In this document: in pieces, positions 48,765-63,724 of the stretch
How the letters are laid out: each line of letters begins with the position of its first letter
How positions within the stretch are numbered: position 1 is the first letter of the stretch
Source of the DNA: Thermoproteota archaeon
Lineage (GTDB): Archaea; Thermoproteota; Nitrososphaeria_A; Caldarchaeales; Calditenuaceae
Length of the DNA: 64,000 nucleotides
Reading direction: 5' to 3'
Assembly (NCBI GenBank): GCA_030550235.1
Contig: JAUQPU010000001.1
Location: forward strand, 381,068 to 445,067
Position numbers and translations under genes: made by a program
Notes under the pieces: generated by a model
The model's database searches: none
The model's input: only the letters and a program-made list of their open reading frames with translations
What the model was told of the DNA's origin: nothing

Positions 48765-50309
48765 ATGAAGCTTGATGCAATTAACATTTTATACATTCTT
48801 ACTTTGAGTGGTTTAATTTTAGCTGGTGCCACACTGCGCCTCTATAATTTGGATGCAGAGAGCGGATGGCACGATTATGATGAAGGAGTACACCTATCGG
48901 CGGCCTTGCTTCTATCCAGAGGCTACACACCGTATGTCGACTTCTTTTTCGCCCATCCTCCACTCTCCCTCCACATCCTAACATACACTGTGGGAGATGG
49001 TGGGAGTGAGGCGTATGCACGGTCAAGGTCTGTATCAGCGGTTCTAGGATCTTTAACTTTGATAGTTTTAGCGGCTGCTGCTCATCTCTCGGTTGGAAAG
49101 ATAACTGCGCTCGCGGGAACAGCTTTTCTAGCCCTTGATGGCTTCGTTTCATACAATTCGAGGATGGTCATGCTAGAGCCCTATACCGACTTCTTCCTCT
49201 CACTATCTGTCATATGCTACGTCTTGCTTAAAAGATGTAGAAATTCTAGGCAGGAGATTCTATCCTCGACTGGCTCTGGAGTTGCTTTAGGCCTGTCTGT
49301 CTCCTCGAAAATGACCGGGCTATTCGGAGCCGCTGCAATTATACTCCACGCACTGGTGTTCAAGAGGACTCGCGCTTCTTTATTCATAATTGCCTCAGCT
49401 GCCCTGACTTATCTCTTGATAAGCGCGAAATACATCTTTGCAGACCCTGACGCATATCTTAAACAGACAGTCCTCTTCCATATCGTCAGGCCGCAAGATG
49501 GTATACCTCAGTCTGAGAGGCTTCACTGGTTACTAACATCTATCTTGGATTTAGGGGTGATGTGGGCTGGTTTTCCAGCCCTTGCCGCCGCCCTACTCAT
49601 GGCTCCACATCTCTCCCGCTCAAAAGTAATCTCTCATGAATCCTACATATGGATAATGTGGAGTCTTTCATACTTGATAGCGTTCTCCATGACAAAAACC
49701 TTCTTTGGGCATTACGTCCAACATATTATAACCCCCCTCTCCTTCGTCCCTGGCATGGCATTGGAGTTCGGGTCAAAGTTTAGGCTTCCACCTTGGAGAG
49801 GATCTATAGTCCATGTATTCTCTACCAGAATCTTACCGGTCTGGATAATATTCATGGCTCTGACACAGGCCGGCATAATATCTGCGGTTAATCCACCCGC
49901 CACGAGAGATGACACGCCTGTAATGGTGTCCATGCGGCTCATAGATCTTGGAGCAGCCAGTTTCTCCATAATCGCTTTTGAGCCCATCTACACCTTTTTA
50001 TCAAAAACAACTCCCTCAAACAGAGTCATAGATTCCTATGGGTACATGATGTATGAGGGCATGGGGTTAGGGCGCTTCGGATTCCTAGAAGCGCTCATGA
50101 AATATTTCTCTGGTGAGCTCTATAGCTCTTGGCCAATATATGAGGAGAGAATACAGGAAAAAATGGTGAGGGATATTCTCGTCAGCGACTACGTCATAAT
50201 TGACTGGCGCGCGAGATGGCAGCTTACAAGACCCTCGCTCTATACAGTCTATCAACACATGACCTGCCTCAATAGAGTAAGGGATATTGAGATCTGTGGG
50301 GTCTCATAA
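48765..50309 (+). CDS. GT-C fold membrane glycosyltransferase (PMT/ArnT, GT39/GT83-like)
   Basis: 514 aa polytopic; first extracytoplasmic loop carries the DE motif (HDYDEGVH...YTPYVDFFFAHPPL) diagnostic of PMT/ArnT-family GT-C enzymes. Confidence 0.7.
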   Translation: MKLDAINILYILTLSGLILAGATLRLYNLDAESGWHDYDEGVHLSAALLLSRGYTPYVDFFFAHPPLSLHILTYTVGDGGSEAYARSRSVSAVLGSLTLIVLAAAAHLSVGKITALAGTAFLALDGFVSYNSRMVMLEPYTDFFLSLSVICYVLLKRCRNSRQEILSSTGSGVALGLSVSSKMTGLFGAAAIILHALVFKRTRASLFIIASAALTYLLISAKYIFADPDAYLKQTVLFHIVRPQDGIPQSERLHWLLTSILDLGVMWAGFPALAAALLMAPHLSRSKVISHESYIWIMWSLSYLIAFSMTKTFFGHYVQHIITPLSFVPGMALEFGSKFRLPPWRGSIVHVFSTRILPVWIIFMALTQAGIISAVNPPATRDDTPVMVSMRLIDLGAASFSIIAFEPIYTFLSKTTPSNRVIDSYGYMMYEGMGLGRFGFLEALMKYFSGELYSSWPIYEERIQEKMVRDILVSDYVIIDWRARWQLTRPSLYTVYQHMTCLNRVRDIEICGVS

Positions 50310-50983: not shown

Positions 50984-53074
50984 TTAGGGTACGAACTGGG
51001 CCGAGAATCTCGGCAGCACTACTGCGAAGAACTCTATAAGCCCCGCCAGCAGTATTGGCGCGCCAAATCCTAGGGATATTCCGGCTGCGACAGGTATAAC
51101 ATACGACTCAAACCTCCTAATGCCTATGGTCCTAATCATTATCACCTTAATTATTAGTGCAACAAGCCCTGAAAGCCAGGTCCATATCAGGCCCACCGCC
51201 ATACTCATGGTCAGCGAGGTTGGATCTATGAAGAACCATGCAAACCTCGATCTCAGGAACCAGACTACGGCAACGATTATGATTCCAATCAAGCCGTAGG
51301 TGAGCCCTGGAGCCCAGTCAACCGCGCCGACTGGTACATACGAGGTGCCTCCAATGAAGTTGCTGAACTTCATGCCCGCAGTCCAAGACCATGCATTAGA
51401 GTTTGCAAGCCCACCTGCATGGTTCAGAAGCCAAATCCTCCAGATGTATCCGAAGACAACGCCAATCGCGATAATCGTGGCTGCTGATACAAGTGCGTCA
51501 CGGACGTTTGTGCCTGTATCTCTAGCGATCTTGTAGTAGGATACTGCTGCTCCAGGCCCGAAGCCATTAACCCTCAGCGTCCACGTGTTGTTGAAGGGAA
51601 TAGTTAGTATTCCTGTCGCGAAGAGCCCTGAGTTTGTTGTGCCCGTTGTCGGTACTGTACCTGGCCAGTAACCAAGGGCAACACCTAGCGGGAAGATATA
51701 TGTTCCAACCCCTCCATTGTTTGCGAAGTCGTCGACGTGCCACCACATGGTCGCAGTTACTCTGGCAAGCGCGCTCCAGTAGATATATGCGAAGACGACC
51801 ATTGCTAGGGAGATGATAAACGGCACACCAGAGGCAGTGAAGAGCGCTAGAATGGCTATCGTGACAATAAGTCCAAACCAAGCTATGGATCTCGTAGATA
51901 GTCCATATTCGTCTTCAGACTTTCCTGTCAGGGCCCTAGCAAGGTCAACAAATCTTGACCTCAGAGTTATCAGGGTAATTATACCCAGTCCCACCATCAT
52001 TCCTAGTATTCCAACGGTTCTGTAGGGGAATGGGAACCAGTTGGCGGGTATGTCCTCCCAATTCCATAGAAACTCCATTCCTGGGTTGTAGGGGAGTGAC
52101 CCAGTTATGACGCCGATCCACTGATAGAGTAGGCCGAAGACAACATACGCTAGTACGGCTGTTATGAGCAGATTGTTTGGGAGGAGTAGCCACAGGGCCA
52201 CTTGGTCGACTTGGAAGACACCCTTTGCCATTGCTCCTGGCATTATGGATGGAAGCCCAAAGATCAATATCGGCTGTTCTCCCCAAGCAAATGCCCCGAA
52301 TACTGCTAGTGGTGGCACGATCTCGCCGAAAACAGGAATAAGCGACGCTATCAGCCCGATGAAGAATGCGACCCAGAAGACCCTAAGGGTTGGCTCCTGT
52401 ATTCGGAACCATCGAGACTTGTTGGTGGTCGGGTCAATGTCGGAGGCATTTCTAACCATGTATACCATAGGGATTGAAAGAGGGAAGATTAGGCGCTCAA
52501 CATCTACCCATCTTCTCCCCCAAACGCCGAAGCCCAGGAAGAGAGCCAAGTAGTACATGAGGATGGTATAGAGTGACCAGTAGATTATTGGCGGTAGGAA
52601 CTCTCCCCAAAGGATTTGTTGCCCCGGTGTTAGCCCAGTCTGCCAGGCCGCAATCATTGTGGGGTCTTTCGGGAACATCCACGGCGGCGTCATCGCCCTC
52701 CAATAAGTCCCCGTAGTGGGGTCATTCATCCCCGCCCCAACCGATACAATCGTCTTCTCGATATAGCCAGAGAGAGCCTCACCACCGCTCAAGGCACCTT
52801 TAGGATAGTACTTTATACTATTCACAAGCGCAAGTGCCGGAAAGATACAAACAAGCTCCTGTGCGGTGAGCCTCAGCCTAGGGTTTGACCGGCCTATAAG
52901 CTCGTTCAGCAGCACGATGTAGATAAACGGAACCCAGAATGCATTGATAGTACCGGTCTTTGATGTGTATAGCCAAGTCATGTCGCCGATTGCTTGGGCG
53001 ACGATAACCAAGATTGCGCCGATCAATATTGACCTTGTGGTCAATCCCCTTATAGAGGCTATTTGTGTGCTCAT
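50984..53074 (-). CDS. Large polytopic membrane protein A (paralog of 53190-55097; possibly OPT-type transporter-like)
   Basis: 696 aa, about 16 predicted TM helices; N-terminal MST...(R/K)(L/K)TAQEL/PLRKQEL block and overall hydropathy shared with paralog B. Confidence 0.55.
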   Translation of the reverse strand: MSTQIASIRGLTTRSILIGAILVIVAQAIGDMTWLYTSKTGTINAFWVPFIYIVLLNELIGRSNPRLRLTAQELVCIFPALALVNSIKYYPKGALSGGEALSGYIEKTIVSVGAGMNDPTTGTYWRAMTPPWMFPKDPTMIAAWQTGLTPGQQILWGEFLPPIIYWSLYTILMYYLALFLGFGVWGRRWVDVERLIFPLSIPMVYMVRNASDIDPTTNKSRWFRIQEPTLRVFWVAFFIGLIASLIPVFGEIVPPLAVFGAFAWGEQPILIFGLPSIMPGAMAKGVFQVDQVALWLLLPNNLLITAVLAYVVFGLLYQWIGVITGSLPYNPGMEFLWNWEDIPANWFPFPYRTVGILGMMVGLGIITLITLRSRFVDLARALTGKSEDEYGLSTRSIAWFGLIVTIAILALFTASGVPFIISLAMVVFAYIYWSALARVTATMWWHVDDFANNGGVGTYIFPLGVALGYWPGTVPTTGTTNSGLFATGILTIPFNNTWTLRVNGFGPGAAVSYYKIARDTGTNVRDALVSAATIIAIGVVFGYIWRIWLLNHAGGLANSNAWSWTAGMKFSNFIGGTSYVPVGAVDWAPGLTYGLIGIIIVAVVWFLRSRFAWFFIDPTSLTMSMAVGLIWTWLSGLVALIIKVIMIRTIGIRRFESYVIPVAAGISLGFGAPILLAGLIEFFAVVLPRFSAQFVP

Positions 53075-53100
53075 TCTCAGCTAAGCGTAAATTATGCCAG

Positions 53101-53115
53101 TATATAAATTTTTTA
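53101..53115. promoter_or_regulatory. AT-rich TATA-like element (tatataaatttttta) in the divergent promoter region, positioned for the minus-strand membrane protein A gene
   Basis: About 27-40 nt upstream of the start at 53074 on the minus strand. Confidence 0.3.
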
Positions 53116-53145
53116 ACACGACTCCTCGCACTTTAACTTCAAGCG

Positions 53146-53159
53146 TATAAACCTATAAA
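53146..53159 (+). promoter_or_regulatory. TATA-like element (tataaacctataaa) for membrane protein B gene
   Basis: About 31-44 nt upstream of ATG at 53190. Confidence 0.3.
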
Positions 53160-53189
53160 GCAGTCCGAATTAGTTGGGTTGCAACCGGT

Positions 53190-55097
53190 ATGTCCACGGA
53201 GCTTGAGAAAACTTCACCGGTTGAATTACTTGAATATGGCATCTCGTGGAGGGTAATCCTAGCTATCTTGACTGCCGCTGTCCTTTTCATCCCCGTCTCA
53301 CTATACCTCAACCTCATATCAGGGGCCCTCTCGCCCGCGATAGCTGTCACGATAATCGCTATACTCTTCGCAGAGCTGACCAGGTTCTTCGGAGCTCCAC
53401 TAAGGAAACAGGAGCTGTTTGTAATATACAGTAGCGTTGCAGTTATGTCATCTACTCTACCACCCTATTACTGGCTAGTTTATAGAACATTTTATGTTAC
53501 GACGCCGATTACCCAATACTTCTTAATTGATGGAACGCCCATCAATCAACTAGTCCCTACGTGGTTGGCACCACCTGCCTTTTCACCAGTCTATCAGCTG
53601 AGAACGCTTCTCCACCCCGACTGGACTTACGCATTAATCGTGACCGGATTATCATTCGCACTGCTAGCTATGGCGGAGATAGGCTTAGCCATCATGTTCA
53701 CATACATATTTGTAAAAGAGGAGAAGCTGAATTATCCACTAGCGCATGTAGAAGCCTCCCTGATAAGCGTCCTTATAGAGAGGGAGGAACAGCACATGTC
53801 CATATACATTCTGGGCATAGTGACAGGTGTTGTCTACGCCTTCATGACTTATGCAGGCTTCCTACTCGGTGTGCCTCTTCTCCCGATACCCTGGTTCGAT
53901 TTTGTCTGGATCACCGAGAAATATATTCCAGGAGCCCTGGTTGGTGTGGCGACAGACCCATTCACACTTGGGCTCGGAATGGTTCTCCCAGTCAAGGTCG
54001 CAGTATCAACACTGATAGGATCTATAGCAATATGGATCATCGCTAACACTATCTTCACCTCATCCCCCAACTTCTTCCCCCTCTGGTTCTCAGAATACTA
54101 TAAAGGAATGACTATAGGCTCGATATATCAGCGGTCCTTCCAGAGAATCTGGATTAGTCCACAGTTCGGCTTCATAATCGGAATAGCAGTCGCCTTGATA
54201 CTAGCGTTTCGAAAGACAATTCTACGGAGTTTTAGACTATTTGCATCGGCAATCGTTAGGCCAAGGGAGACAGAGCTCCCATTAAGGTTCGCACTAACTC
54301 TATTCCTAGTTGCATCGATTGGTTCTGTAATTCTCTTCCTGATATTGGTACCTGGGTTTCCCGCTTGGATTGCACTGGTTACTTCTCTTGTTTTGAGCTT
54401 CTTCATAGCGATGGTCGCTGCAAGATCTCTCGGAGAAGTAGGATACTTTCCAGCAATTCCATGGCCCTGGCAAGTTATTGTCTATTTCACTCCATATAAT
54501 GGCTACGCTGGATGGGTTTATTCCCCCTACATAAACCTAGGATATACTGGCTACCTCTCACAACTTGGTAAGGTCAGCTACCTCACCTCAACGCGCCCAA
54601 CCCACTATTTCATAGGAGTCGCAGGTGCATTCGCATTAATCGGCATAATTGGATTAATATCAATGGACTTCTTCTGGAGGCTATCACCTATACCCTCAAA
54701 TGTCTACCCAATCACGATGATTTACTGGCCCATCTATGCGACTAACGATAGTCTATTCGCTACGCGCCAGATTGCCGTTATACCTGAACACATCGGCATA
54801 GGGGCTCTCTCGACTCTTGGAATAGTATCCTTGGAGGTCTTGTTCCGAAGGATTGGTCTGGCGTTCCCCACATTCCCAATAGTGCTGGGATTCTTCATAC
54901 TTCCTCCATACGCTATAACTATACTAATAGGTTCACTGCTGGCGAATATTATCATTTCCAAGACGTTCGGGAAGGAAAGGTGGGAGGCCATAAAAAACTT
55001 CTTCATAGCTGGCTTCTTCTCCGGTCTAGGTATCACGGTTGGTGTCGGAATATCGTTTACGCTGCTTTCAAAGGCGTCCTGGATCTGGCCTTGGTGA
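53190..55097 (+). CDS. Large polytopic membrane protein B (paralog of 50984-53074; FAELTRFF resembles the ELTxR N-terminal motif of OPT-family transporters, tentative)
   Basis: 635 aa, about 16 predicted TM helices; paralogy to protein A visible by eye. Confidence 0.55.
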   Translation: MSTELEKTSPVELLEYGISWRVILAILTAAVLFIPVSLYLNLISGALSPAIAVTIIAILFAELTRFFGAPLRKQELFVIYSSVAVMSSTLPPYYWLVYRTFYVTTPITQYFLIDGTPINQLVPTWLAPPAFSPVYQLRTLLHPDWTYALIVTGLSFALLAMAEIGLAIMFTYIFVKEEKLNYPLAHVEASLISVLIEREEQHMSIYILGIVTGVVYAFMTYAGFLLGVPLLPIPWFDFVWITEKYIPGALVGVATDPFTLGLGMVLPVKVAVSTLIGSIAIWIIANTIFTSSPNFFPLWFSEYYKGMTIGSIYQRSFQRIWISPQFGFIIGIAVALILAFRKTILRSFRLFASAIVRPRETELPLRFALTLFLVASIGSVILFLILVPGFPAWIALVTSLVLSFFIAMVAARSLGEVGYFPAIPWPWQVIVYFTPYNGYAGWVYSPYINLGYTGYLSQLGKVSYLTSTRPTHYFIGVAGAFALIGIIGLISMDFFWRLSPIPSNVYPITMIYWPIYATNDSLFATRQIAVIPEHIGIGALSTLGIVSLEVLFRRIGLAFPTFPIVLGFFILPPYAITILIGSLLANIIISKTFGKERWEAIKNFFIAGFFSGLGITVGVGISFTLLSKASWIWPW

Positions 55098-55135: not shown

Positions 55136-55933
55136 GTGAAGCTCTCATGCCAGGATAATCTTGTACCGGGCAGCACCTTGACTGAGAAGCTTGAGAACTT
55201 GGAGAAGCTGGGATTCAGCGGAATAGAGCTTTGGGGTAGGCCTCACCTGGGCGAGAATCTTAGAGAGGTGAAGGATACGCTGGCATCTTTTAAAGTGAGC
55301 CCATCGGTCATCTGCGCAGGGTACAGTGGAGACCTCCTCAGTCCTGAGCCTAAGGCAAGAGCTGAAGCAGTTCAGGGGATAGTTCAGAGGCTTGAATGGG
55401 CCAGCGAGATTGGGGCCGTAGGCGTCATATTCGTCCCAACATTTGGTGGAGCCAAACTTCCTGATCTATCACCGCTCTATCAAAACGTCATCGAACTTGA
55501 AAAAAGATTGCTGGTAGCTGAGTGTAAGACTCTGGCTAAGAAGGGGGAGGAGCTGGGTGTATGCGCCATATTAGAGCCGCTCAACAGATACGAGACACAT
55601 CTGATAAATACTCTCAAACAAGGATTAGAGATTATAAGGGAAGTAAACTATGAAGGTTTAAGGCTGATGGCCGATTTCTTTCACATGAACATAGAGGAGA
55701 GTAACATCGATGACGCTTTGTCAGAAGCGTCAGACTACTTGGTGCATGTGCACCTAGCCGACAGCAACAGATGCCTCCCAGGCTACGGGCACACTGATTT
55801 CACACCCATAAAGATACTTCTATCAAGAGGGTACAGCAAGTATTTCTCGCTGGAGTGCAGAATAATTGGCGACCCACTGGAGGAGCTGAGAAAATTTGTA
55901 AAATTTATTTCTAAATATGGTGATGTGAGATGA
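55136..55933 (+). CDS. Xylose isomerase-like TIM-barrel protein (sugar phosphate isomerase/epimerase, IolI/IolE-like)
   Basis: 265 aa; TIM-barrel AP-endo2 family motifs (ILEPLNRYE, HLAD, E/H metal ligands). Confidence 0.75.
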   Translation: MKLSCQDNLVPGSTLTEKLENLEKLGFSGIELWGRPHLGENLREVKDTLASFKVSPSVICAGYSGDLLSPEPKARAEAVQGIVQRLEWASEIGAVGVIFVPTFGGAKLPDLSPLYQNVIELEKRLLVAECKTLAKKGEELGVCAILEPLNRYETHLINTLKQGLEIIREVNYEGLRLMADFFHMNIEESNIDDALSEASDYLVHVHLADSNRCLPGYGHTDFTPIKILLSRGYSKYFSLECRIIGDPLEELRKFVKFISKYGDVR

Positions 55934-56910
55934 ATCCGATAGGTATAGTTTTAATTGGCTGTGGCGGCATAATGAATGTCCATGCAAAGAGTCTAATGAC
56001 GTTAAGGGATGGTGTCCGCGTTGTAGCTTGTGCTGACATTGTGAAGGAGAGGGCAGAAGAGTTTGCAAATAGGTTTGGATGCGCGGCCTATACGGATCCT
56101 GTGGAAGCTGTGTCCGAGACGCATCCTGACGTCGCAATAATAGCTGTCCCGCCAAATGCACATGGATTTGAGGAAGAGATAATCGAGCATGGAGTTCACC
56201 TCTTGATAGAAAAGCCTGTGGCAATAAATCTAGAAGTAGCCTCACGCATACTGCGTAAGATTGAGAAGGCCGGAGTTATCAATAGTGTAGGCTACATGTG
56301 GAGATATCTTGATGTTGTCCAGATAGCGAAGAAAGAGATCTCCAACCCCGCTGATATCGGGATGATTTATGGACAGTATGTTTGGGCAGCGAACTTTCCG
56401 CCTGGGCACTGGTGGTTGAGAAAATCCCAGAGCGGCGGGCAGATAGTCGAGCAAGTCACACATATGGTCGACCTAATAAGATACTTCGCGGGGGAGGCTT
56501 CTTCAGTCTATGCAAGGCTTGAAAAAAGGCTCTCGAAGGATGAGGCAATAGACGTTGAGGATTCCTCCGTAATCACTATCAGGCATAAAAGCGGCGTCAC
56601 ATCCACGATAGTGGCCACCTGGAAGAGTACAAACACAATGCAGGATACGTTCATACGGATATTTGCCAGAGACCTAGTGGCAGATATTGTTGGGCATCAG
56701 AGGAAAGCAACATTCTATAGGACCAATAAGGTTGAGGAACTGAGGAGTGCTGTTGACCCATATCTTGAGGAGCTACGGACATTTGTTGAGGCTGTACGAA
56801 CCGGAGATCAGTCTAGAATACTTTCACCCTATTCGGACGCATACAAGACCCTCGAGTTGACCATCAAGGCGAATGAATCTCACAAGTTGGCCAGGATAAT
56901 CGAGGTTTGA
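55930..56910 (+). CDS. Gfo/Idh/MocA-family NAD(P)-dependent oxidoreductase (IolG-like)
   Basis: 326 aa; N-terminal Rossmann GxGxxG (IGCGGIMN) and EKP motif (LLIEKPVA) diagnostic of the family; ATGA overlap with upstream TIM-barrel gene. Confidence 0.8.
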   Translation: MNPIGIVLIGCGGIMNVHAKSLMTLRDGVRVVACADIVKERAEEFANRFGCAAYTDPVEAVSETHPDVAIIAVPPNAHGFEEEIIEHGVHLLIEKPVAINLEVASRILRKIEKAGVINSVGYMWRYLDVVQIAKKEISNPADIGMIYGQYVWAANFPPGHWWLRKSQSGGQIVEQVTHMVDLIRYFAGEASSVYARLEKRLSKDEAIDVEDSSVITIRHKSGVTSTIVATWKSTNTMQDTFIRIFARDLVADIVGHQRKATFYRTNKVEELRSAVDPYLEELRTFVEAVRTGDQSRILSPYSDAYKTLELTIKANESHKLARIIEV

Positions 56911-58571
56911 GTGGTCAGCAGCTAAACAAAAGGTACGCAGTCGCCCTTTGCGTGACCCTCCTCTCTTACTGGCTATTTAGCAGTGGGGTATTCTCATATC
57001 AATATGTGCCATTGACTTCCATGCCGGCGTACAAGCCCTATTTTCAGGATGTCACGAGTGATTCAGGTCTCTTAGTAAGAGTAGTCGATGACCGAGAGAT
57101 GGTATGGATCCCGGGCGGTGGGAGCTGTTGGGGAGATTACGATAGGGATGGCGACCTAGACGTTTATGTCGTGGGCTGGAATGCAACTGGAAGGTTATTC
57201 AGGAATGATGGCGGCCTGTTTACGGATGTGACGCGTGAGTCTGGACTTCTTATCGAGGGTATTGTTGCCGGGAAGGGAATGGGCTGCTCTTGGGCCGACT
57301 ATGATAACAGTGGATTTCCATCTCTGCTTGTAACCTTCTACGATTCTCCCTATGGCAATGTTCACCTGTTTAAAAACCTGGGCGATGGCTCGTTTAGGCT
57401 TGTAACAGATGAGGTGGGCCTCTCTCTTAATCATGGAAGATATGCCTCTGGGGTCGCCTGGGGAGATGTAAATAGGGACGGATGTCTTGACCTCTATATA
57501 GGCTACTACATCAACCTCCGACAGGTCAAAGAGGGCGCAATATTCAGCCAAGGCTCTGGAAATCAGCTCTTCATCAACAACTGTGACGGCTCCTTCAGAG
57601 AATCCGCTGAAATCTACGGTGTCGTTGACTATGGCTATACATTCCAACCCATTTTCATAGACTACGACCTAGACTTTTTCCCTGACCTTTTCCTGGCCAA
57701 TGACTTCGGATACACGAGGCTGTATAGGAACGAGGAGGGTAGGCGTTTCATCCTATCCGCATCGTCTATAGGTGCTGAGAGAGTAGGACAGTGGATGGGG
57801 GTAGCGTATGGGGACTTAGACATGGATGGATACTGGGATATAATTGTGACAAATTACGACGACAACCTCCTCCTAAAATATACAGGTGCGTATTTTAACG
57901 ATATCACGGCAAGGCTCAGGCTAACAGATCCCTACCAGGTCGGCTGGGGAGTATGCATCATCGACATAGACAATAATGGCCTTCTCGACATAATAGTGGC
58001 TAATGGTAAGATAGGCGTTAGGACTGACAAGCCAAGCAATCAAGTTAACAGGGTCTTCTATAATGCTGGGCCATTCTTCTATGATGCCACGTGGCATGCG
58101 GGGCTCATAAGACATGTCAACACACGTGGATTGTCATGCGTGGACATGGACAAAGACGGAGGCGTTGACCTACTATTCTATGACTTACTAGGGTATCCTA
58201 TACTGTATAGAAACCTGATATCGAATTATACAGGCAATCGGTGGGTTCAGGTGAGGCTCGAGGGGGCTACCTGGCTCTGCGGCGCCTGCACCTACAGGAC
58301 TAGCAGGGAGGCTGTAGGCGCTGTAGTGGAGGTGGAGTCTTTAGGTAAGATTTACCGTCAGACAGTTACAAAGGGTACTTCATTCATGTCAGATAATGGC
58401 CCCTGGCTGTACTTTGGCTTAGGGCGGGCCTCTCGTATTGAGAGATTGACAGTCTATTGGCCTAGTGGAATAGTAGAGAATTATAGAGACCTCCCGGTAA
58501 ATAGTGTAATCTTGATCGTGGAGCAAGGGGGTTGCAGTGTGATCGGTGGATTGTCGGGGCATGAAGAGTGA
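56907..58571 (+). CDS. Secreted FG-GAP/VCBS-repeat protein with ASPIC/UnbV-like C-terminal domain (CRTAC1-like)
   Basis: 554 aa; signal peptide/TM; at least 7 repeats of the WxDYDxDGDxDxxV FG-GAP calcium-binding motif; C-terminal ASPIC-like region. Confidence 0.7.
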   Translation: MSGQQLNKRYAVALCVTLLSYWLFSSGVFSYQYVPLTSMPAYKPYFQDVTSDSGLLVRVVDDREMVWIPGGGSCWGDYDRDGDLDVYVVGWNATGRLFRNDGGLFTDVTRESGLLIEGIVAGKGMGCSWADYDNSGFPSLLVTFYDSPYGNVHLFKNLGDGSFRLVTDEVGLSLNHGRYASGVAWGDVNRDGCLDLYIGYYINLRQVKEGAIFSQGSGNQLFINNCDGSFRESAEIYGVVDYGYTFQPIFIDYDLDFFPDLFLANDFGYTRLYRNEEGRRFILSASSIGAERVGQWMGVAYGDLDMDGYWDIIVTNYDDNLLLKYTGAYFNDITARLRLTDPYQVGWGVCIIDIDNNGLLDIIVANGKIGVRTDKPSNQVNRVFYNAGPFFYDATWHAGLIRHVNTRGLSCVDMDKDGGVDLLFYDLLGYPILYRNLISNYTGNRWVQVRLEGATWLCGACTYRTSREAVGAVVEVESLGKIYRQTVTKGTSFMSDNGPWLYFGLGRASRIERLTVYWPSGIVENYRDLPVNSVILIVEQGGCSVIGGLSGHEE

Positions 58572-59904
58572 GCCTACGCAGCCTGTTAGCGTGTCAAGCA
58601 GATTTCTCCTATTATTGAGCCGAGACAGTCTTCTAAACACTATTGTGCTAACAGCTTTTATTACGCAGACACTCCATATGATAGAGCATAGCGCCCAGAT
58701 GTATCAGCACGTTGTCCTTGGCCTGCCAGCTAAGCTTTCTAACGGGCTCCTATTCTTCCTAGACCTAGAGTGGAATCACTTCCTCTTCAACACGCTCTAT
58801 TTAACATTTCTAATCATAATATTTGCAAGGCTGAAACCCTGGTTAACCACTGGCCTAAGTGAGAAGGAGATGCTCCCAATACTCTTCACCACTGGGCTAT
58901 TTATACAATCCTACCATGTTCTGGAACATACATACAGAATGTACGAGTTTCTAACAATAGGATGCACACCATGCTCAGGGATATTGGGAAGATTCTTTGA
59001 CATGGTTCACTTTCACTTTTTCTTAAACCTAGCTGCCTACCCGTTAATTGCTGCCTTGTTTGTTAAAGCCGGGGGTTTAAGACAGCTGCTCAATCCATCA
59101 CCGACAGACGAGACGCATGAGGCTCCTTGGCATAAGCTCGTCAAATCTCCTGCACCAGTATTGGGCATAGTTCTAGTTTATGGCCTTTATACTGGCTATT
59201 CTGTTGAAGCCTACCTGCTCGGCACAACAGTCTTTACAGCCATTGGTGTGGCACTATTTCTCTCCATTTTTGAAGGAGACCTGATACGAAACATTATGGA
59301 CGCTATTGTTGTTGCGTTTTTGGCAGTTATGTGCATCACGTCGTATTTTAGTGCATTGGCTATAGTCTTGGTCAGCCTCTTCTCTGCTAGGGTTTTGCAA
59401 AGATCAAGGGCTCCGGCGCTGAATTATATAGCATTCTCATTCGCAGCGATTCTTACTCTTTCTATGCCTTCGCTTGTTGCCTCACGGTGGGGCAACTACA
59501 ATCTCTACACCTTCTTCACATTGCTCCTTTTTCTCGGCCTCTCAATAAACGCCCTCTCTAAAACAACGGACATTGTTCTAGCTTATATCACTACATGGAT
59601 AACACTATTTATCCCTTTTGAGTTGGCACGGCTAGCCGTTGCTCCCGGCGAGGCGCTTCTCCTACTCCCATCCCACGCCCTAAAAGTGTTTACCAATCCT
59701 ATTTTGATCCTTATAGCCTTCTTCATCGTCCCGCTCCAGAATACTTTTCCACCAAAAAGGTGGCGTATAGTGTATCCAATAGGCTGTGTAACAATTTCTT
59801 TCTTACTATCCTACATCATTCCTATTGATGTAGCGGCCTTCTCTGGCATAGCACTAGCCAACATAGCATATATCGTTGTTGACTGGGCTCTCCACAGAGG
59901 ATAA
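58546..59904 (+). CDS. Hypothetical polytopic membrane protein with duplicated H-x-x-E-H-x4-MY motif and a CxxC (possible membrane metalloenzyme)
   Basis: 452 aa (start possibly at 58561); HMIEHSAQMY and HVLEHTYRMY internal repeat in the first two helices, CTPCSG; overlaps FG-GAP gene by 26 nt. Confidence 0.5.
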   Translation: MDCRGMKSEPTQPVSVSSRFLLLLSRDSLLNTIVLTAFITQTLHMIEHSAQMYQHVVLGLPAKLSNGLLFFLDLEWNHFLFNTLYLTFLIIIFARLKPWLTTGLSEKEMLPILFTTGLFIQSYHVLEHTYRMYEFLTIGCTPCSGILGRFFDMVHFHFFLNLAAYPLIAALFVKAGGLRQLLNPSPTDETHEAPWHKLVKSPAPVLGIVLVYGLYTGYSVEAYLLGTTVFTAIGVALFLSIFEGDLIRNIMDAIVVAFLAVMCITSYFSALAIVLVSLFSARVLQRSRAPALNYIAFSFAAILTLSMPSLVASRWGNYNLYTFFTLLLFLGLSINALSKTTDIVLAYITTWITLFIPFELARLAVAPGEALLLLPSHALKVFTNPILILIAFFIVPLQNTFPPKRWRIVYPIGCVTISFLLSYIIPIDVAAFSGIALANIAYIVVDWALHRG

Positions 59905-59924: not shown

Positions 59925-60677
59925 CTACGCCTGTTTTTCTCGGCTTTCCTCAACCTCTATCTCGCCGACCCTCACCTTCACCGCGACCCTCTCCTCCTCC
60001 CTCTCTATTTTTCCATCACGTATCCATAGAATCCTGTCAGATACATCTATCATCTTCAAGTCGTGGGTCGCTGCTATGACTGTAACTTTCCTATCCAAGT
60101 TAAGCTGTTTTAGCAGGTCTATAATTTGCCTGCCAGTCTTCAGGTCAAGGTTTCCGGTTGGCTCATCTGCCAGTATTATGCTTGGGTCATTGGCTAATGC
60201 CCTAGCTATCGCGACCCTCTGCTGCTGACCTCCGGAGAGTTCCATAGGTCTGTGATGGAGCCTGTCGCCAAGCCCAACTGTCTGGAGGAGTTCAGTAGCC
60301 TTTCTAAACCTATCCTCCCTGCTGACGCCTGCGAAAATCATGGGAAGCATCACATTCTCTAATGCCGTCAATGTTGGGATGAGATTAAAAGTTTGGAAGA
60401 TGTACCCAATCTTTCTATTTCTGAGCCAAGCCAGCTCGTATGAGTCTAGCTTCGAGATATCGACGCCATCGACATAGACTGTACCCTCCGTGGGCTTGTC
60501 TAGTCCACCGATCATGTTGAATAGAGTAGTCTTGCCTGAGCCTGAGGGGCCCATAATAGAGATATACTCGCCGCGATAGATCTTGAGATCAACGCCGTCT
60601 AGGGCTACAACATCAACTTTTCCCAGCTTATAGATCTTTTTTAAACCCTCGGTCGCGACTACGACCTCTCTTGCCAA
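59925..60677 (-). CDS. ABC transporter ATP-binding protein, MacB/LolD/FtsE type (partner class for FtsX permeases)
   Basis: 250 aa; Walker A GPSGSGKTT, Q-loop, signature LSGGQQQR, Walker B ILADEPTGNLD, H-loop ATHD. Confidence 0.85.
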   Translation of the reverse strand: MAREVVVATEGLKKIYKLGKVDVVALDGVDLKIYRGEYISIMGPSGSGKTTLFNMIGGLDKPTEGTVYVDGVDISKLDSYELAWLRNRKIGYIFQTFNLIPTLTALENVMLPMIFAGVSREDRFRKATELLQTVGLGDRLHHRPMELSGGQQQRVAIARALANDPSIILADEPTGNLDLKTGRQIIDLLKQLNLDRKVTVIAATHDLKMIDVSDRILWIRDGKIEREEERVAVKVRVGEIEVEESREKQA

Positions 60678-61946: not shown

Positions 61947-62573
61947 TTATTTGACTTGGCGTCTAATTACTGGCTGCTTGGCTGGGATGTTAGGGAGTGT
62001 AGCCACTATTCTGCTGTATATTGCGTAGGCTGGGAGTACACTTAGGAAGACGTGTAGGATGTTGAAGATGGATGTGAAAGCCACCATCACTGTTGCGAGG
62101 GTTAAGTCTGACTCCACTGAGATACCTATGCCTCCTAGCACCTTCCTCGAGAAGGGAAGATAGACGCTCGGGAATAGATAATAATATAGGATAAAGGTGG
62201 CTGCTGCCATGATAACAGTCCTCAGGAGAAGAGACAGGGAGACGCCGTTCAGCGCCGTCGAGCCTCCCTTAATGCGAGACGCTATCTCCAATCCAGCGAT
62301 GGTGGTTAGAACAGCTAGGAGCTTCATGGTTGGCCCAACCAGCTGATGAAATGGTGTCCCGAAGTTTAGGGCAATCCAGTGGGCAATGGCCGCGACTAGT
62401 CCTCCGGAGAGGCCAAACAAGAGGTAGGCGAGAATGTCCGGTATCTCGGAGAAGTCGAACGACAGGAATGGCAGGAGAGGGAAGCGGATATGTAGCCTCA
62501 TCAGCGAGAGGGCGTAGGCCAGGGCTGCCAAAGTCGCCACGCCTGCAACCCATTTTGTATTAACTCGCACCAT
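61947..62573 (-). CDS. Small polytopic membrane protein (ECF-transporter S-component-like, tentative); paralog of 63011-63724
   Basis: 208 aa, about 6 TM; shared block LPFLSFDFSEIPDILAYLLFG...HWIALNFG with paralog. Confidence 0.55.
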   Translation of the reverse strand: MVRVNTKWVAGVATLAALAYALSLMRLHIRFPLLPFLSFDFSEIPDILAYLLFGLSGGLVAAIAHWIALNFGTPFHQLVGPTMKLLAVLTTIAGLEIASRIKGGSTALNGVSLSLLLRTVIMAAATFILYYYLFPSVYLPFSRKVLGGIGISVESDLTLATVMVAFTSIFNILHVFLSVLPAYAIYSRIVATLPNIPAKQPVIRRQVK

Positions 62574-62665: not shown

Positions 62666-62968
62666 TCACTCACTTGTGATAATTCCCATCGAAGCTAAGG
62701 AATTATACAATGACTCTATGTTCAGCCCCTTCTTGACCGATACAACCCTGCTCCGTCCCACCTCGTAGATGTTTACCAGTCCAGCCTTGCGAAGGATAGC
62801 TATGTGCCTATAGACCGCCGAATACCTCTTCTTCAACAATCGCGCGTATGCTTTAATGTGGAGTGGCCTTTCGTTCTCAGCAGCTATGAGGAGTATTTTG
62901 AGCCTGGTCGTGTTTCCGAGGGCATTAAATATTCCACCCAATTCAGCCAACTTCTGCTCCGACAACAT
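62666..62968 (-). CDS. ArsR/SmtB-family winged-HTH transcriptional regulator
   Basis: 100 aa; LGNTTRLKILLIAAENERPLHIKAYARLLKKRYSAVYRHIAILRKAGLV wHTH pattern. Confidence 0.75.
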   Translation of the reverse strand: MLSEQKLAELGGIFNALGNTTRLKILLIAAENERPLHIKAYARLLKKRYSAVYRHIAILRKAGLVNIYEVGRSRVVSVKKGLNIESLYNSLASMGIITSE

Positions 62969-63010: not shown

Positions 63011-63724
63011 TTGATACTCAGCCATGTGTTGCTACTCATGCTTTATAAGATGAGCCGGTATGGGGCACATAGAGGGGCGTTGCTTAAGAGTAGAGACTTT
63101 ATGATAGGAGCTGTTTTTGGTGGTCTAGCCTTCACGATGGGGTTTCTGCCCCTCAGCTTCATGTTCCCTCCTCTTCCCTACCTAAAGTTCGACTTCGCAG
63201 AGATCCCTTCCTTTATAGCGATGCTGATGTTCGGTCCAGCTATAGGATTCATATCCGCCACAAGCCACTTTATCGCGCTGCTCATGTTCGGGGAATGGAG
63301 CCCCGTTGGCCCCATAATGAAATATCTAGCGGTCTCATCTAGCCTTTTAGGTTTCTGGATGGCTGCTCGCCTGACAGATGGGAGGGGAATTAGGGTCTGC
63401 TCTCTCTCGCTGGCCCTATTCGGGGCCGCCGTAAGAGTGGTACTCTTGGGCCTAGCTAACTATGTTCTACTGACCGTCCTCTTCCCCTTTTTCCTGGACT
63501 TCGGGGCCCAGTCTCTAGCAAGCGTTATGGGGCTTACAATACCCACGTTCGAGGAAAAGCTCTTCTTCGTGCTATTATTCACAGGCTTCTACAACGCGCT
63601 ACATATTCCCCTCTCGATGATTCCAGCCCTACTCATCACGCGCTCCCTCGCGCCTGTCTCTCCCCTACTGGGCTCCTCATCACCTTGGATAACTACCGTT
63701 GCCCAGGCTAAGAGAAACAAGTAG
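63011..63724 (+). CDS. Small polytopic membrane protein (ECF-transporter S-component-like, tentative); paralog of 61947-62573
   Basis: 237 aa, about 6 TM; LPYLKFDFAEIPSFIAMLMFG...HFIALLMFG block shared with paralog. Confidence 0.55.
   Translation: MILSHVLLLMLYKMSRYGAHRGALLKSRDFMIGAVFGGLAFTMGFLPLSFMFPPLPYLKFDFAEIPSFIAMLMFGPAIGFISATSHFIALLMFGEWSPVGPIMKYLAVSSSLLGFWMAARLTDGRGIRVCSLSLALFGAAVRVVLLGLANYVLLTVLFPFFLDFGAQSLASVMGLTIPTFEEKLFFVLLFTGFYNALHIPLSMIPALLITRSLAPVSPLLGSSSPWITTVAQAKRNK

Follow-up and report, generated by a model that had tools for sequence, protein, structure and literature searches.

An envelope protein pair that resembles E4/E5 of enediyne biosynthesis clusters is encoded in an archaeon, with no polyketide genes around it, and is joined to a publicly undescribed domain family, here termed the HxxEH family. 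The pair constitutes the second half of a four-gene operon at positions 55136–59904 (+ strand) of a 64,000-nucleotide stretch (hereafter the window; positions 381,068 to 445,067 of contig JAUQPU010000001.1, assembly GCA_030550235.1) from a hot-spring Thermoproteota archaeon of the Calditenuaceae (Caldarchaeales). In the explanation that we consider best, and to which we give rather more credence than doubt, this Caldarchaeales operon combines a cytoplasmic sugar module (genes 1 and 2) with an archaeal E4-E5-like envelope module (genes 3 and 4), the latter acting as one membrane complex. An earlier reading of the same DNA (the original prediction) had described an operon of a sugar isomerase, a dehydrogenase, a secreted propeller and a membrane protein with a repeated motif. 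As an observation it was confirmed with small corrections; its interpretation held for the family calls, the gene spacing, the repeat and the motif conservation, but not for an inositol pathway, for linkage by synteny, or for a combination wholly undescribed. The four genes are as follows.

55136..55933, + strand: gene 1, xylose-isomerase-like TIM barrel, 265 amino acids (aa) (open reading frame and Pfam)
55930..56910, + strand: gene 2, Gfo/Idh/MocA (GFO) dehydrogenase, 326 aa (open reading frame and Pfam)
56907..58571, + strand: gene 3, FG-GAP propeller with UnbV/ASPIC domain, 554 aa (open reading frame and Pfam)
58561..59904, + strand: gene 4, two-domain polytopic membrane protein, 447 aa from its probable ATG start (homolog alignment)

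The propeller, its membrane partner and the enediyne proteins E4 and E5

Gene 3 scored 121.9 bits with FG-GAP_3, in five stretches, and 56.3 bits with UnbV_ASPIC (PF07593), and it matched the CRTAC1 structure 9etn (E 6.8e-13), which confirms the predicted FG-GAP/ASPIC, CRTAC1-like assignment. The count of at least seven FG-GAP repeats was also reasonable, with six strict calcium-binding motifs of the Dx[DN]xDG type and one degenerate motif (ADYDNSG, at about residue 130). The propeller is predicted to sit outside the cell, anchored in the membrane, and to bind calcium. It shares with the CRTAC1/ASPIC family the calcium-binding FG-GAP propeller and the C-terminal ASPIC/UnbV domain, as reflected in the match to 9etn, but differs in having nine lineage-specific cysteines, including a CxxC insertion, and a dedicated membrane partner. 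When eight orthologs and five bacterial homologs were aligned, these nine cysteines were present in every archaeal sequence and in none of the bacterial ones.

56937..56993, + strand: N-terminal hydrophobic signal or anchor of gene 3, residues 11–29 (hydropathy scan, single segment)
58278..58289, + strand: CGAC motif of gene 3, Cys458 and Cys461, in a 9-residue insertion of the ASPIC region specific to Caldarchaeales
58311..58508, + strand: UnbV_ASPIC domain of gene 3, residues 469–534 (PF07593, 56.3 bits)

The enediyne protein SgcE4, which itself carries FG-GAP_3 plus UnbV_ASPIC in Pfam, resembles gene 3 both in BLASTP (E 1.4e-15) and when used as a tblastn query on the window (E 6.5e-14). 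E3, E4 and E5 are described in the literature as conserved accessory genes of the enediyne cassette, of unknown function (PMC5181780; PMC9992847; PMC10760148), and in the enediyne papers searched we found no account of what E4 and E5 do. The connection to E5 came from protein P0240, in which a propeller is fused to a PF03116 domain (65.9 bits, above threshold): as a tblastn query this domain retrieved 15 Streptomyces plasmids carrying genes annotated as 'enediyne biosynthesis protein' or 'RnfD'. On plasmid SGLP1 of S. globisporus C-1027 the genes run DUF1702, DUF1702, CRTAC1-family (642 aa), 'RnfD' (374 aa), type I polyketide synthase, SgcE6 and P450, an order that corresponds to E2-E3-E4-E5-E. 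The coupling of E4 to E5 recurs in three other loci, and in the Streptomyces enediyne loci the two genes are separated by 2 nt or share 4 nt (loci compared with genes 3 and 4: L032, L033, L054 and L055). SgcE4 and a second E4 protein have an N-terminal anchor laid out as in gene 3, and SgcE5 matches PF03116 over its whole length at 26.9 bits, just below the cutoff.

Genes 3 and 4 follow this arrangement: as in UnbV/UnbU (SgcE4/SgcE5), an anchored FG-GAP/ASPIC propeller gene precedes, and is coupled to, a gene for an RnfD-like protein without flavin loop, the E5-likeness of gene 4 consisting of a fold and weak sequence signals. The window differs from the enediyne cassette in lacking PKSE, thioesterase and DUF1702 (E2/E3) genes, in its archaeal host, and in having sugar enzymes and a permease as neighbours. 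In tblastn searches of the 64-kb window SgcE2, E3, E, E5 and the thioesterase gave no match, and SgcE4 alone matched. Gene 4, moreover, is unlike E5 in fusing an HxxEH domain to the RnfD-like domain, the latter being more divergent than E5 and without PF03116 signal. The predicted novelty of the combination therefore does not extend to the propeller plus RnfD-like pair, which is that of enediyne E4/E5, and survives in part through the HxxEH domain, which lacks a public description.

The original prediction had gene 4 as a 452-aa polytopic protein; polytopic it is, but it comprises 447 aa from its likely start and is a two-domain fusion. The evidence on the C-terminal domain is structural and sequence-based.

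59113..59901, + strand: C-domain of gene 4, residues ~190–452, RnfD/NqrB/UnbU-like, without flavin loop (Foldseek and weak sequence signals)
59692..59751, + strand: residues 383–402 of gene 4, TNPILILIAFFIVPLQNTFP, aligning with the RnfD/UnbU motif (F)FM(I/A)TDPxT(S)P (profile alignments)

A Foldseek search with the full-length model of gene 4 returned 8rbq_D at E 2.7e-4 (probability 1.0, target TM-score 0.61, 293 columns). The top seven matches, and seven of the top ten, were all RnfD or NqrB chains; the matched RnfD chains come from A. vinelandii and A. woodii, NqrB followed, and Rh and Mep2 ammonium channels were weaker. The predicted fold of residues ~160–452 thus resembles 8rbq_D, 9eri_D and 8ahx_D, then NqrB. 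At the sequence level, hhalign gave a probability of 56.6% (E 1.1e-4, 65 columns covering the last two helices) against a six-sequence RnfD/NqrB template and 50.5% over 170 collinear columns against an E5/UnbU-type template. An E5-type hidden Markov model (HMM), run unfiltered against 3,439 open reading frames, matched nothing but family members, RsxD of E. coli and orthologs of gene 4, the orthologs at E 2e-5 and 3.8e-4 and, in a further search, at 1.8e-7 and 6.4e-6; the databases searched in this way are small. The conserved motifs aligned were R..LN with RhvlNPsnfG and AFFIVPxPxTFP with FFMITDPKTSP; N384, P385, A391, F392, T400 and P402 are invariant in the full-length gene 4 alignment, and the C-terminal pattern AFFxxxxPxT...PxD..AF..LxN of RnfD/NqrB occurs in gene 4 too. 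In true RnfD a DGxSxATPL-type [S/T]xA[T/S] loop bears the threonine for covalent flavin mononucleotide. The loop DGxSxATPL, found in RsxD and RnfD, has no counterpart in gene 4, P0240N or SgcE5, and unlike RnfD/NqrB gene 4 has no other Rnf/Nqr subunits nearby. We regard the C-domain as probably, if not securely, homologous to the RnfD superfamily.

The duplicated HxxEH domain and its partners

An exhaustive profile search of 1.84 billion cluster representatives found 315 proteins related to gene 4, of which only two were full length. All other matches listed cover profile positions ~25–170 only, and the N-terminal 145 residues therefore represent a separate domain, which mostly stands alone in proteins of 160–250 aa. 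The family is defined here by a ~140-aa signature of QxxHxxEHxxQ on helices 1 and 3, EWxHxxxN on helix 2 and HFxxN on helix 4. Gene 4 fits it with all signature residues, 269 bits against the domain HMM (ndom) and a confident four-helix model. Conservation percentages below refer to 155 aligned relatives of the domain.

58627..59067, + strand: HxxEH N-domain, residues 28–174, duplicated bundle of four transmembrane (TM) helices (profile search, AF2 model)
58675..58689, + strand: HxxEH motif 1, H44-M-I-E47-H48, helix 1 (H 96%, E 99%, H 98%)
58762..58791, + strand: helix 2 motif, D73-L-E75-W-N-H78-F-L-F-N82 (E75 and H78 99%, N82 91%)
58915..58929, + strand: HxxEH motif 2, H124-V-L-E127-H128, helix 3 (H 100%, E 100%, H 98%)
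58963..58974, + strand: CTPC, residues 140–143, in loop 3–4, which is predicted to face outward (present in ~37% of the broad family)
59008..59028, + strand: helix 4 motif, H155-F-H157-F-F-L-N161 (H157 100%, N161 95%, H155 not conserved)

The positions conserved at 88–100% are Q41, H44, E47, H48, Q51, Q54, G67, E75, H78, N82, Q121, H124, E127, H128, G145, G148, H157 and N161, and the conserved set includes six His, three Glu and one Asp; neither H55 nor H155 is conserved in the broad family. HMIEH (44–48) and HVLEH (124–128) do not vary among 12 full-length homologs, the most distant of which has 41% identity, and the HxxEH residues are at least 96% conserved among the 155 relatives, so that the motifs of the original prediction proved to be conserved in homologs. 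The internal repeat HMIEHSAQMY/HVLEHTYRMY that it reported is likewise real and a significant duplication, the two halves (helices 1–2 and 3–4) being homologous with an hhalign probability of 98.9% (E 1.4e-17). The motifs lie on helices 1 and 3, however, and not on the first two helices. As judged from its sequence, the domain is a tandem duplication of a two-TM hairpin. CTPC was correctly noticed and is invariant in the full-length family, but marks a subfamily and not the family as a whole. Two further proteins, P0014 (450 aa) and P0015 (339 aa), contain two tandem HxxEH domains, that is eight TM helices or four hairpin repeats.

A domain-only AlphaFold2 (AF2) model consisted of four long helices (pLDDT 91.2, pTM 0.85). 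A fold search with this model found no significant match among solved PDB structures; gene 4 had no match in Pfam or NCBIfam, and the family profile gave only chance hits against PDB sequences. Nor did we find a public model, a solved structure or literature for the domain. Mean Lys+Arg counts were 2.54 in loop 2–3, 0.64 in loop 1–2 and 0.51 in loop 3–4, which holds CTPC; by the positive-inside rule the domain is therefore predicted to be N-in/C-in. This orientation is consistent with the fusions described below, as propeller fusions add a fifth TM segment after the domain and NosD-type fusions add one before it. By position relative to the predicted helix limits, the conserved polar residues fall in the outer half of each helix, and the His/Glu cluster and the CTPC loop would therefore face the outside.

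A metal site formed by His and Glu residues of the bundle is plausible. Di-iron carboxylate sites have the ligand pattern E...ExxH...E...ExxH in a four-helix bundle, and a canonical site of this kind (AOX- or ferritin-like) was considered and rejected, as the conserved elements here are HxxEH, ExxH, HxxEH and H, without the ExxH pair pattern. With its two HxxxH pairs, two more His, three Glu and Gln/Asn ladder, the core may resemble His-rich binuclear metal sites such as those of hemerythrin or type-3 copper proteins.

The only recurring weak signal in database searches was DUF6008 (PF19471), for which we found no paper. Eight of 46 family members matched it below threshold (best E 6e-5), and a true DUF6008 protein (402 bits) scored 35.8 bits on the HxxEH family HMM. 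Both families have two HxxEH motifs plus the HxxxN pattern, and are therefore related at clan level; DUF6008 proteins are longer (~235 aa), and gene 4 and its close relatives, unlike them, have no PF19471 match even at E ≤10.

A NosD-like beta-helix is present in 22 of the 49 long family members and FG-GAP repeats in three, two of these with UnbV_ASPIC; a BNR/sortilin propeller, an RHS/LamG/TIG combination and DUF2330 occur in one long member each. All fusion partners are extracytoplasmic beta-rich modules. The HxxEH-propeller fusion constitutes a Chloroflexota family of ~20 clusters, some of them on Mb-scale contigs, and in two further lineages (L042 and L048) an FG-GAP/ASPIC gene is immediately preceded by an HxxEH gene of the stand-alone type; in L048 the two genes are 3 nt apart and isolated among housekeeping genes. 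The propeller is thus fused to HxxEH in Chloroflexota and to an RnfD-like domain in P0240, and HxxEH is fused to an RnfD-like domain in gene 4. Each of the three possible module pairs therefore exists as a fusion, and in several lineages the modules also occur as adjacent genes; nothing argues more strongly for genes 3 and 4 being one functional unit.

The C-1027-type clusters, like gene 4, encode an HxxEH protein, which stands alone there. WP_010056327.1, a 187-aa 'hypothetical protein' whose gene lies 0.8 kb from sgcE2, clearly belongs to the family (63 bits; motifs HWAEH, SEWMH, HHMEH and HLFYN), and its ortholog is found elsewhere in a second C-1027-type cluster (60 bits). The association of HxxEH with enediyne clusters is recurrent, not universal. 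In both C-1027-type clusters a ~140-aa hypothetical protein without Pfam match is encoded beside the HxxEH gene (L032 2937–3365, - strand; L055 31608–32030, + strand), and this gene pair has moved relative to the cassette between the two clusters.

Several other arrangements were noted around the family. In a Chloroflexota locus (L027 5588–8981) an ABC ATPase, an ABC-2 permease and a 446-aa protein precede the HxxEH-propeller fusion, a layout that recalls NosF/NosY plus accessory proteins; the 446-aa protein was considered as gene-4-like or RnfD-like and rejected, since it looks secreted, has a C-terminal anchor and gave no Pfam match. The fifth TM segment of P0065 (~205–237) and P0091 (~230–256) is Tat-like, of the SRRxF type (SRRSFMIG... 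and SRRALLVG...), which suggests that the fusion may have arisen by joining an HxxEH gene to a gene for a Tat-exported propeller precursor. A ~200-aa N-terminally anchored protein (47–77% identity among copies, no Pfam match) is always encoded directly upstream of the CTPC-type stand-alone HxxEH gene (L011 6409–7014, L013 6354–6989, L015 5137–5712; also L041 and L044–L046), and this pair is often accompanied by an NHL-like propeller of 650–730 aa with 'VDxxNNEI' repeats. On Metabacillus plasmid pB218 (L034 5420–6807) a redoxin gene overlaps by 4 nt a gene for an RnfD-like protein lacking the flavin loop (PF03116, 63 bits), and a redoxin fragment lies near a stand-alone HxxEH gene at L011 4562–4810; such neighbours hint at a link to thiol redox chemistry outside the cytoplasm. 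In acidobacterial CRTAC1 loci and two long metagenome contigs, neither an HxxEH nor an RnfD-like partner turned up.

A genome scan with gene 4 as single protein returned only Caldarchaeales and two Dehalococcoidia loci, whose neighbours (MFS, ABC exporters) were uninformative. The JGI metagenome contig Ga0105160_1000242 (L035) carries a copy with a 100% identical N-domain, and therefore stems from the same population as the window.

Sugar enzymes, transcription unit and gene order

Gene 1 scored 110.3 bits with Pfam AP_endonuc_2 (PF01261; threshold 31.1), and gene 2 scored 87.6 bits with GFO_IDH_MocA (PF01408; threshold 24), plus C-terminal domains, which bears out the predicted TIM-barrel and Gfo/Idh/MocA families. 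The motifs of gene 1, located at residues 145, 178, 204 and 237, presumably hold the Glu, Asp, His and Glu typical of its family, while gene 2 contains the Rossmann GxGxxG-like motif as GCGGI (residue 10) and the EKP motif as IEKP (residue 93). A hydropathy scan found no TM segment in either protein, and together they look like a cytoplasmic pair of NAD(P) dehydrogenase and keto-sugar epimerase/isomerase.

Inositol oxidation had been proposed for this pair, and genes 1 and 2 do belong to the two superfamilies of IolG and IolI/IolE/IolO, with Iol entries as their top NCBIfam names. The scores were less than half the curated cutoffs, however (gene 1, 142.8 bits with IolO-like NF041099 against an equivalog cutoff of 300; gene 2, 110.4 with IolG, TIGR04380, against 355), and unlike in myo-inositol catabolism no other iol genes are present. 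Gene 2 also scored 95 with the archaeal UDP-GlcNAc 3-dehydrogenase against a cutoff of 450. The nearest PDB entries of gene 1 were 3kws (putative sugar isomerase), 6wn6 (3-keto-D-glucoside 4-epimerase, E 5.7e-32), TM_0416 and ketose 3-epimerases, and those of gene 2 were 3ezy (Thermotoga dehydrogenase), then DgpA1/DgpA (E 3.8e-19 and 3.1e-16). With such scores, and with 3-keto-glycoside enzymes as nearest structures, the inositol assignment is not specifically supported. Known 3-keto-glycoside pathways that pair a Gfo/Idh/MocA enzyme with a TIM barrel include E. coli YcjS/YcjR, DgpA with C-deglycosidases, ThuB/ThuA and the levoglucosan enzymes LgdA/LgdB. The window pair is similar in its nearest relatives (6wn6 and DgpA1/DgpA) and in the 4-nt overlap of its genes, and dissimilar in reaching no equivalog threshold and in being coupled to a propeller-membrane pair.

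All four open reading frames were found on the + strand exactly where they had been predicted, with the ATGA overlap of genes 1 and 2 (55930–55933) and the TTGA overlap of genes 2 and 3 (56907–56910). Sequences resembling Shine-Dalgarno sites, GGTGATG and GAGG, lie directly 5' of these two starts, and the tight spacing is consistent with the predicted translational coupling. The overlap of genes 3 and 4 had been given as 26 nt, which needs the GTG at 58546 that opens the longest gene 4 reading frame (58546–59904, + strand). As the starts of all 11 aligned homologs fall at the position of M6, gene 4 likely begins at ATG 58561; the overlap itself is real but amounts to 11 nt, as it does in the gene calls of three orthologous loci. 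For an identical copy of gene 4 in a Nitrososphaerota metagenome-assembled genome (MAG), the NCBI call is 429 aa, with a start 23 codons further in.

53075..53189, no strand: divergent intergenic region of 115 nt with TATA-like boxes (sequence reading)
53190..55097, + strand: polytopic permease of 635 aa, OPT-like (29.2 bits with Pfam OPT, cutoff 25.8)
59934..59938, + strand: run of five T, putative archaeal terminator, 30 nt past the gene 4 stop

The permease gene lies 38 nt upstream of gene 1 on the same strand, and this gap is 5–38 nt in most orthologous loci, reaching 65 nt in two Logan contigs (L003/L004). In the divergent region, TATAAA at 53146–53151 and 53154–53159 faces the + strand operon, and tatataaa at 53102–53109, read on the - strand, faces the DUF6785/6784 gene. 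These boxes lie ~28–44 nt from both flanking start codons, and from what is generally known of archaeal promoters they may act as such. The transcription unit probably starts at the permease gene and comprises five genes, although a TTATAT element and AGGTGA precede gene 1, so an internal transcription start is possible.

More than 15 loci, in Calditenuaceae/Caldarchaeales MAGs and hot-spring metagenomes, keep the order PMT-like glycosyltransferase, 211-aa gene, DUF6785/6784, OPT-like permease, TIM barrel, GFO, propeller and gene 4. The 10 kb that follow, with unrelated genes (ABC ATPase, Dph2, PAC2, JAB and Vps4-like ATPase), are conserved in these loci as well, so that the loci are collinear over ~20 kb; Dph2 is an archaeal-type diphthamide synthase according to Pfam and NCBIfam. 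Since the housekeeping neighbours are equally collinear, synteny alone is no proof of a function shared by the sugar enzymes and genes 3 and 4, and we rejected it as evidence for a four-gene pathway: every order-keeping locus is collinear over this length, including Dph2, PAC2 and the Vps4-like gene. Conservation of the four-gene order in related genomes is thus found inside Caldarchaeales but not outside, and, with the whole region collinear, it does not show functional linkage. In the loci examined outside Caldarchaeales, no TIM, GFO or OPT homologs accompany propeller/HxxEH pairs; in a Chloroflexota locus GFO and TIM genes lie 7–9 kb off, not adjacent, and both families are very common. In the literature on Calditenuaceae we found no mention of this cluster.

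Identity to the window among the lineage loci was, gene by gene:

DUF6785/6784: 89–95%
ABC ATPase: 89–93%
OPT-like permease: 79–90%
TIM barrel (gene 1): 69–83%
GFO (gene 2): 66–82%
Propeller (gene 3): 62–75%
Dph2: 61–72%
PMT-like: 48–71%
Gene 4: 42–62%, the fastest-evolving in the region

The polytopic DUF6785/DUF6784 gene (50984–53074, - strand), divergent from the operon, is unusually well conserved compared with Dph2 and gene 4. It was considered as a paralog of the OPT-like gene and this was rejected, hhalign and BLAST giving no signal. In L009 (7363–8347; GCA_038740925.1) two calls of 174 and 150 aa stand in place of a single GFO ortholog, which the closely related L021 has intact, so that the split represents either a frameshift/pseudogene in one MAG or an assembly error. 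Downstream of Dph2, two polytopic genes (61947–62573, - strand, and 63011–63724, + strand), one of them ECF_trnsprt-like, flank a small helix-turn-helix regulator (62666–62968, - strand; HTH_5/HVO_A0114-like), an arrangement kept in all related loci. The PMT/GT39-like glycosyltransferase gene of the GT-C type (48765–50309, + strand) precedes gene 3 by 6.6 kb; one Streptomyces enediyne locus also has, 2.5 kb from E4/E5, a gene for a 'glycosyltransferase family 39 protein' (L033 1983–3515, - strand), maybe by coincidence.

Proposed function, competing explanations and significance

In the preferred explanation, genes 1 and 2 would oxidise a hydroxyl of a sugar or glycoside to a keto group and then rearrange the keto-sugar. 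The anchored outer propeller would work with its polytopic two-domain partner as an archaeal counterpart of UnbV-UnbU (E4-E5) without polyketide genes. Six His, three Glu and the Gln/Asn ladder would line the outer-leaflet half of the HxxEH bundle, probably holding one or two metal ions, and propeller, bundle and RnfD-like domain would form one outward-facing complex for a metal-dependent, probably redox, step at the cell surface. Such a function is favoured by the His/Glu-rich core together with an outward CxxC in both partners in this lineage. The product of genes 3 and 4 might possibly feed genes 1 and 2, for example as a glycoside imported by the permease; bacterial CRTAC1-family genes are often found in carbohydrate-utilisation-like loci, and a glycan or glycoside substrate feeding the sugar enzymes is therefore plausible.

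Several points weigh against this explanation. The fold match of the C-domain rests on a full-length model with a pLDDT of 72 built from 12 sequences, its E5-HMM scores are only 17–22 bits with high compositional bias and, like the hhalign probabilities of 50–57%, borderline, and neither gene 4 nor five orthologs match PF03116 even at E ≤10. Both membrane partners are missing from the surroundings of many bacterial propeller genes, and the link between TIM/GFO genes and the propeller was seen only in the collinear lineage. In a third enediyne locus nothing closer than a DUF6008 relative, at a distance of 7.5 kb, represents the family, and around a fourth cassette (L053) no HxxEH protein was found within 20 kb. 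Finally, we know of no physical interaction, metal content or activity for any family member.

The original prediction offered a single pathway, in which IolG and IolI/IolE-like enzymes, together with the propeller and a membrane protein with a di-metal site, would modify a glycan or cyclitol outside the cell. In its favour are the close packing of the genes, whose order more than 15 loci share, the NCBIfam names ranked first (IolO and IolG), and bacterial CRTAC1 loci that often hold GH27, GH31, GH88, CE15, ThuA, AP_endonuc_2, LacI or a sugar ABC transporter; nevertheless, we consider this pathway improbable, given Iol scores far under the cutoffs (143 against 300; 110 against 355), nearest solved relatives that suggest 3-keto-glycoside chemistry, a collinearity of ~20 kb that takes in housekeeping genes, and TIM, GFO and OPT genes that do not lie beside HxxEH/propeller pairs elsewhere, those of Chloroflexota being 7–9 kb away and from very common GFO and TIM families. 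A metal-handling or transport role for genes 3 and 4, allowing passage of a metal or solute or loading the propeller or secreted proteins with Cu, Zn or Fe, appears no less doubtful to us. It would explain the polar ladder Q41-H44-H48-Q51-Q54 of helix 1 and its helix 3 equivalent, which runs conduit-like over about five turns, and it is consistent with the weaker Foldseek matches to Rh and Mep2 ammonium channels, the frequent NosD-like fusions, the CxxC in the outward loop of some members, the redoxin genes near HxxEH and RnfD-like genes, and the ABC-2 transporter pair that precedes the Chloroflexota fusion. Searches of Pfam, NCBIfam and the PDB revealed, on the other hand, no similarity to a characterised metal transporter, the name NosD denotes a general beta-helix fold, and the cysteines occur in just ~37% of the family.

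HxxEH is also the inverted zincin motif of M16 peptidases, and the domain could be an intramembrane metallopeptidase that processes or releases the propeller or other secreted beta-rich partners. The strict conservation of HxxEH with further conserved Glu and Asn residues, and partners that are always secreted or anchored with an adjacent TM or signal segment (Tat-like in P0065 and P0091), would agree with such an activity, which we nonetheless hold to be very unlikely: a pseudo-symmetric, duplicated motif with six His is a misfit for a mononuclear zincin, no similarity to M16, M48, M50 or CPBP was found in Pfam or the PDB, and a stable covalent fusion to the supposed substrate would be unusual for a processing protease. 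Hardly more credible is a purely structural role, with gene 3 as a structural or adhesive surface protein, gene 4 as a non-catalytic anchor or assembly factor, and the operon as a product of genome compaction. Vertebrate CRTAC1 is an extracellular matrix protein, and the match of gene 3 to its structure, the nine lineage-specific cysteines suggestive of disulfide stabilisation of an exposed protein, and the rapid evolution of gene 4 (42–62% identity) all fit this role. A passive anchor would have no need, however, for nine His/Glu residues in its TM bundle conserved at 96% or more across distant phyla, and E4/E5 are reported to be conserved parts of the cassette for enediyne biosynthesis (PMC5181780; PMC9992847), a role other than adhesion.

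Beyond the preferred explanation, the HxxEH, flavin-less RnfD/UnbU-like and UnbV-like modules could, as a speculation that we think unlikely to hold, be an ancient outward-facing metallo-redox machine of archaea, Chloroflexota and actinomycetes, which in enediyne producers, as E4/E5 plus the overlooked HxxEH protein, would catalyse the long-unexplained conversion of PKSE polyene towards the enediyne core, and in archaea would perform this chemistry on a different substrate at the cell surface.

For Calditenuaceae, the analysis flags a strongly conserved envelope and permease locus. For the family, it brings out a third module that recurs with the propeller/RnfD-like pair, a four-TM domain of ~140 residues with nine near-invariant His/Glu residues, fused or adjacent to propellers in several phyla; a member of it is encoded without annotation in C-1027-type clusters, and the domain bears on an open question in enediyne biosynthesis. 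The presence of an E4/E5-like pair in an archaeon, far outside polyketide clusters, argues for a general function at the membrane surface rather than one specific to enediynes.

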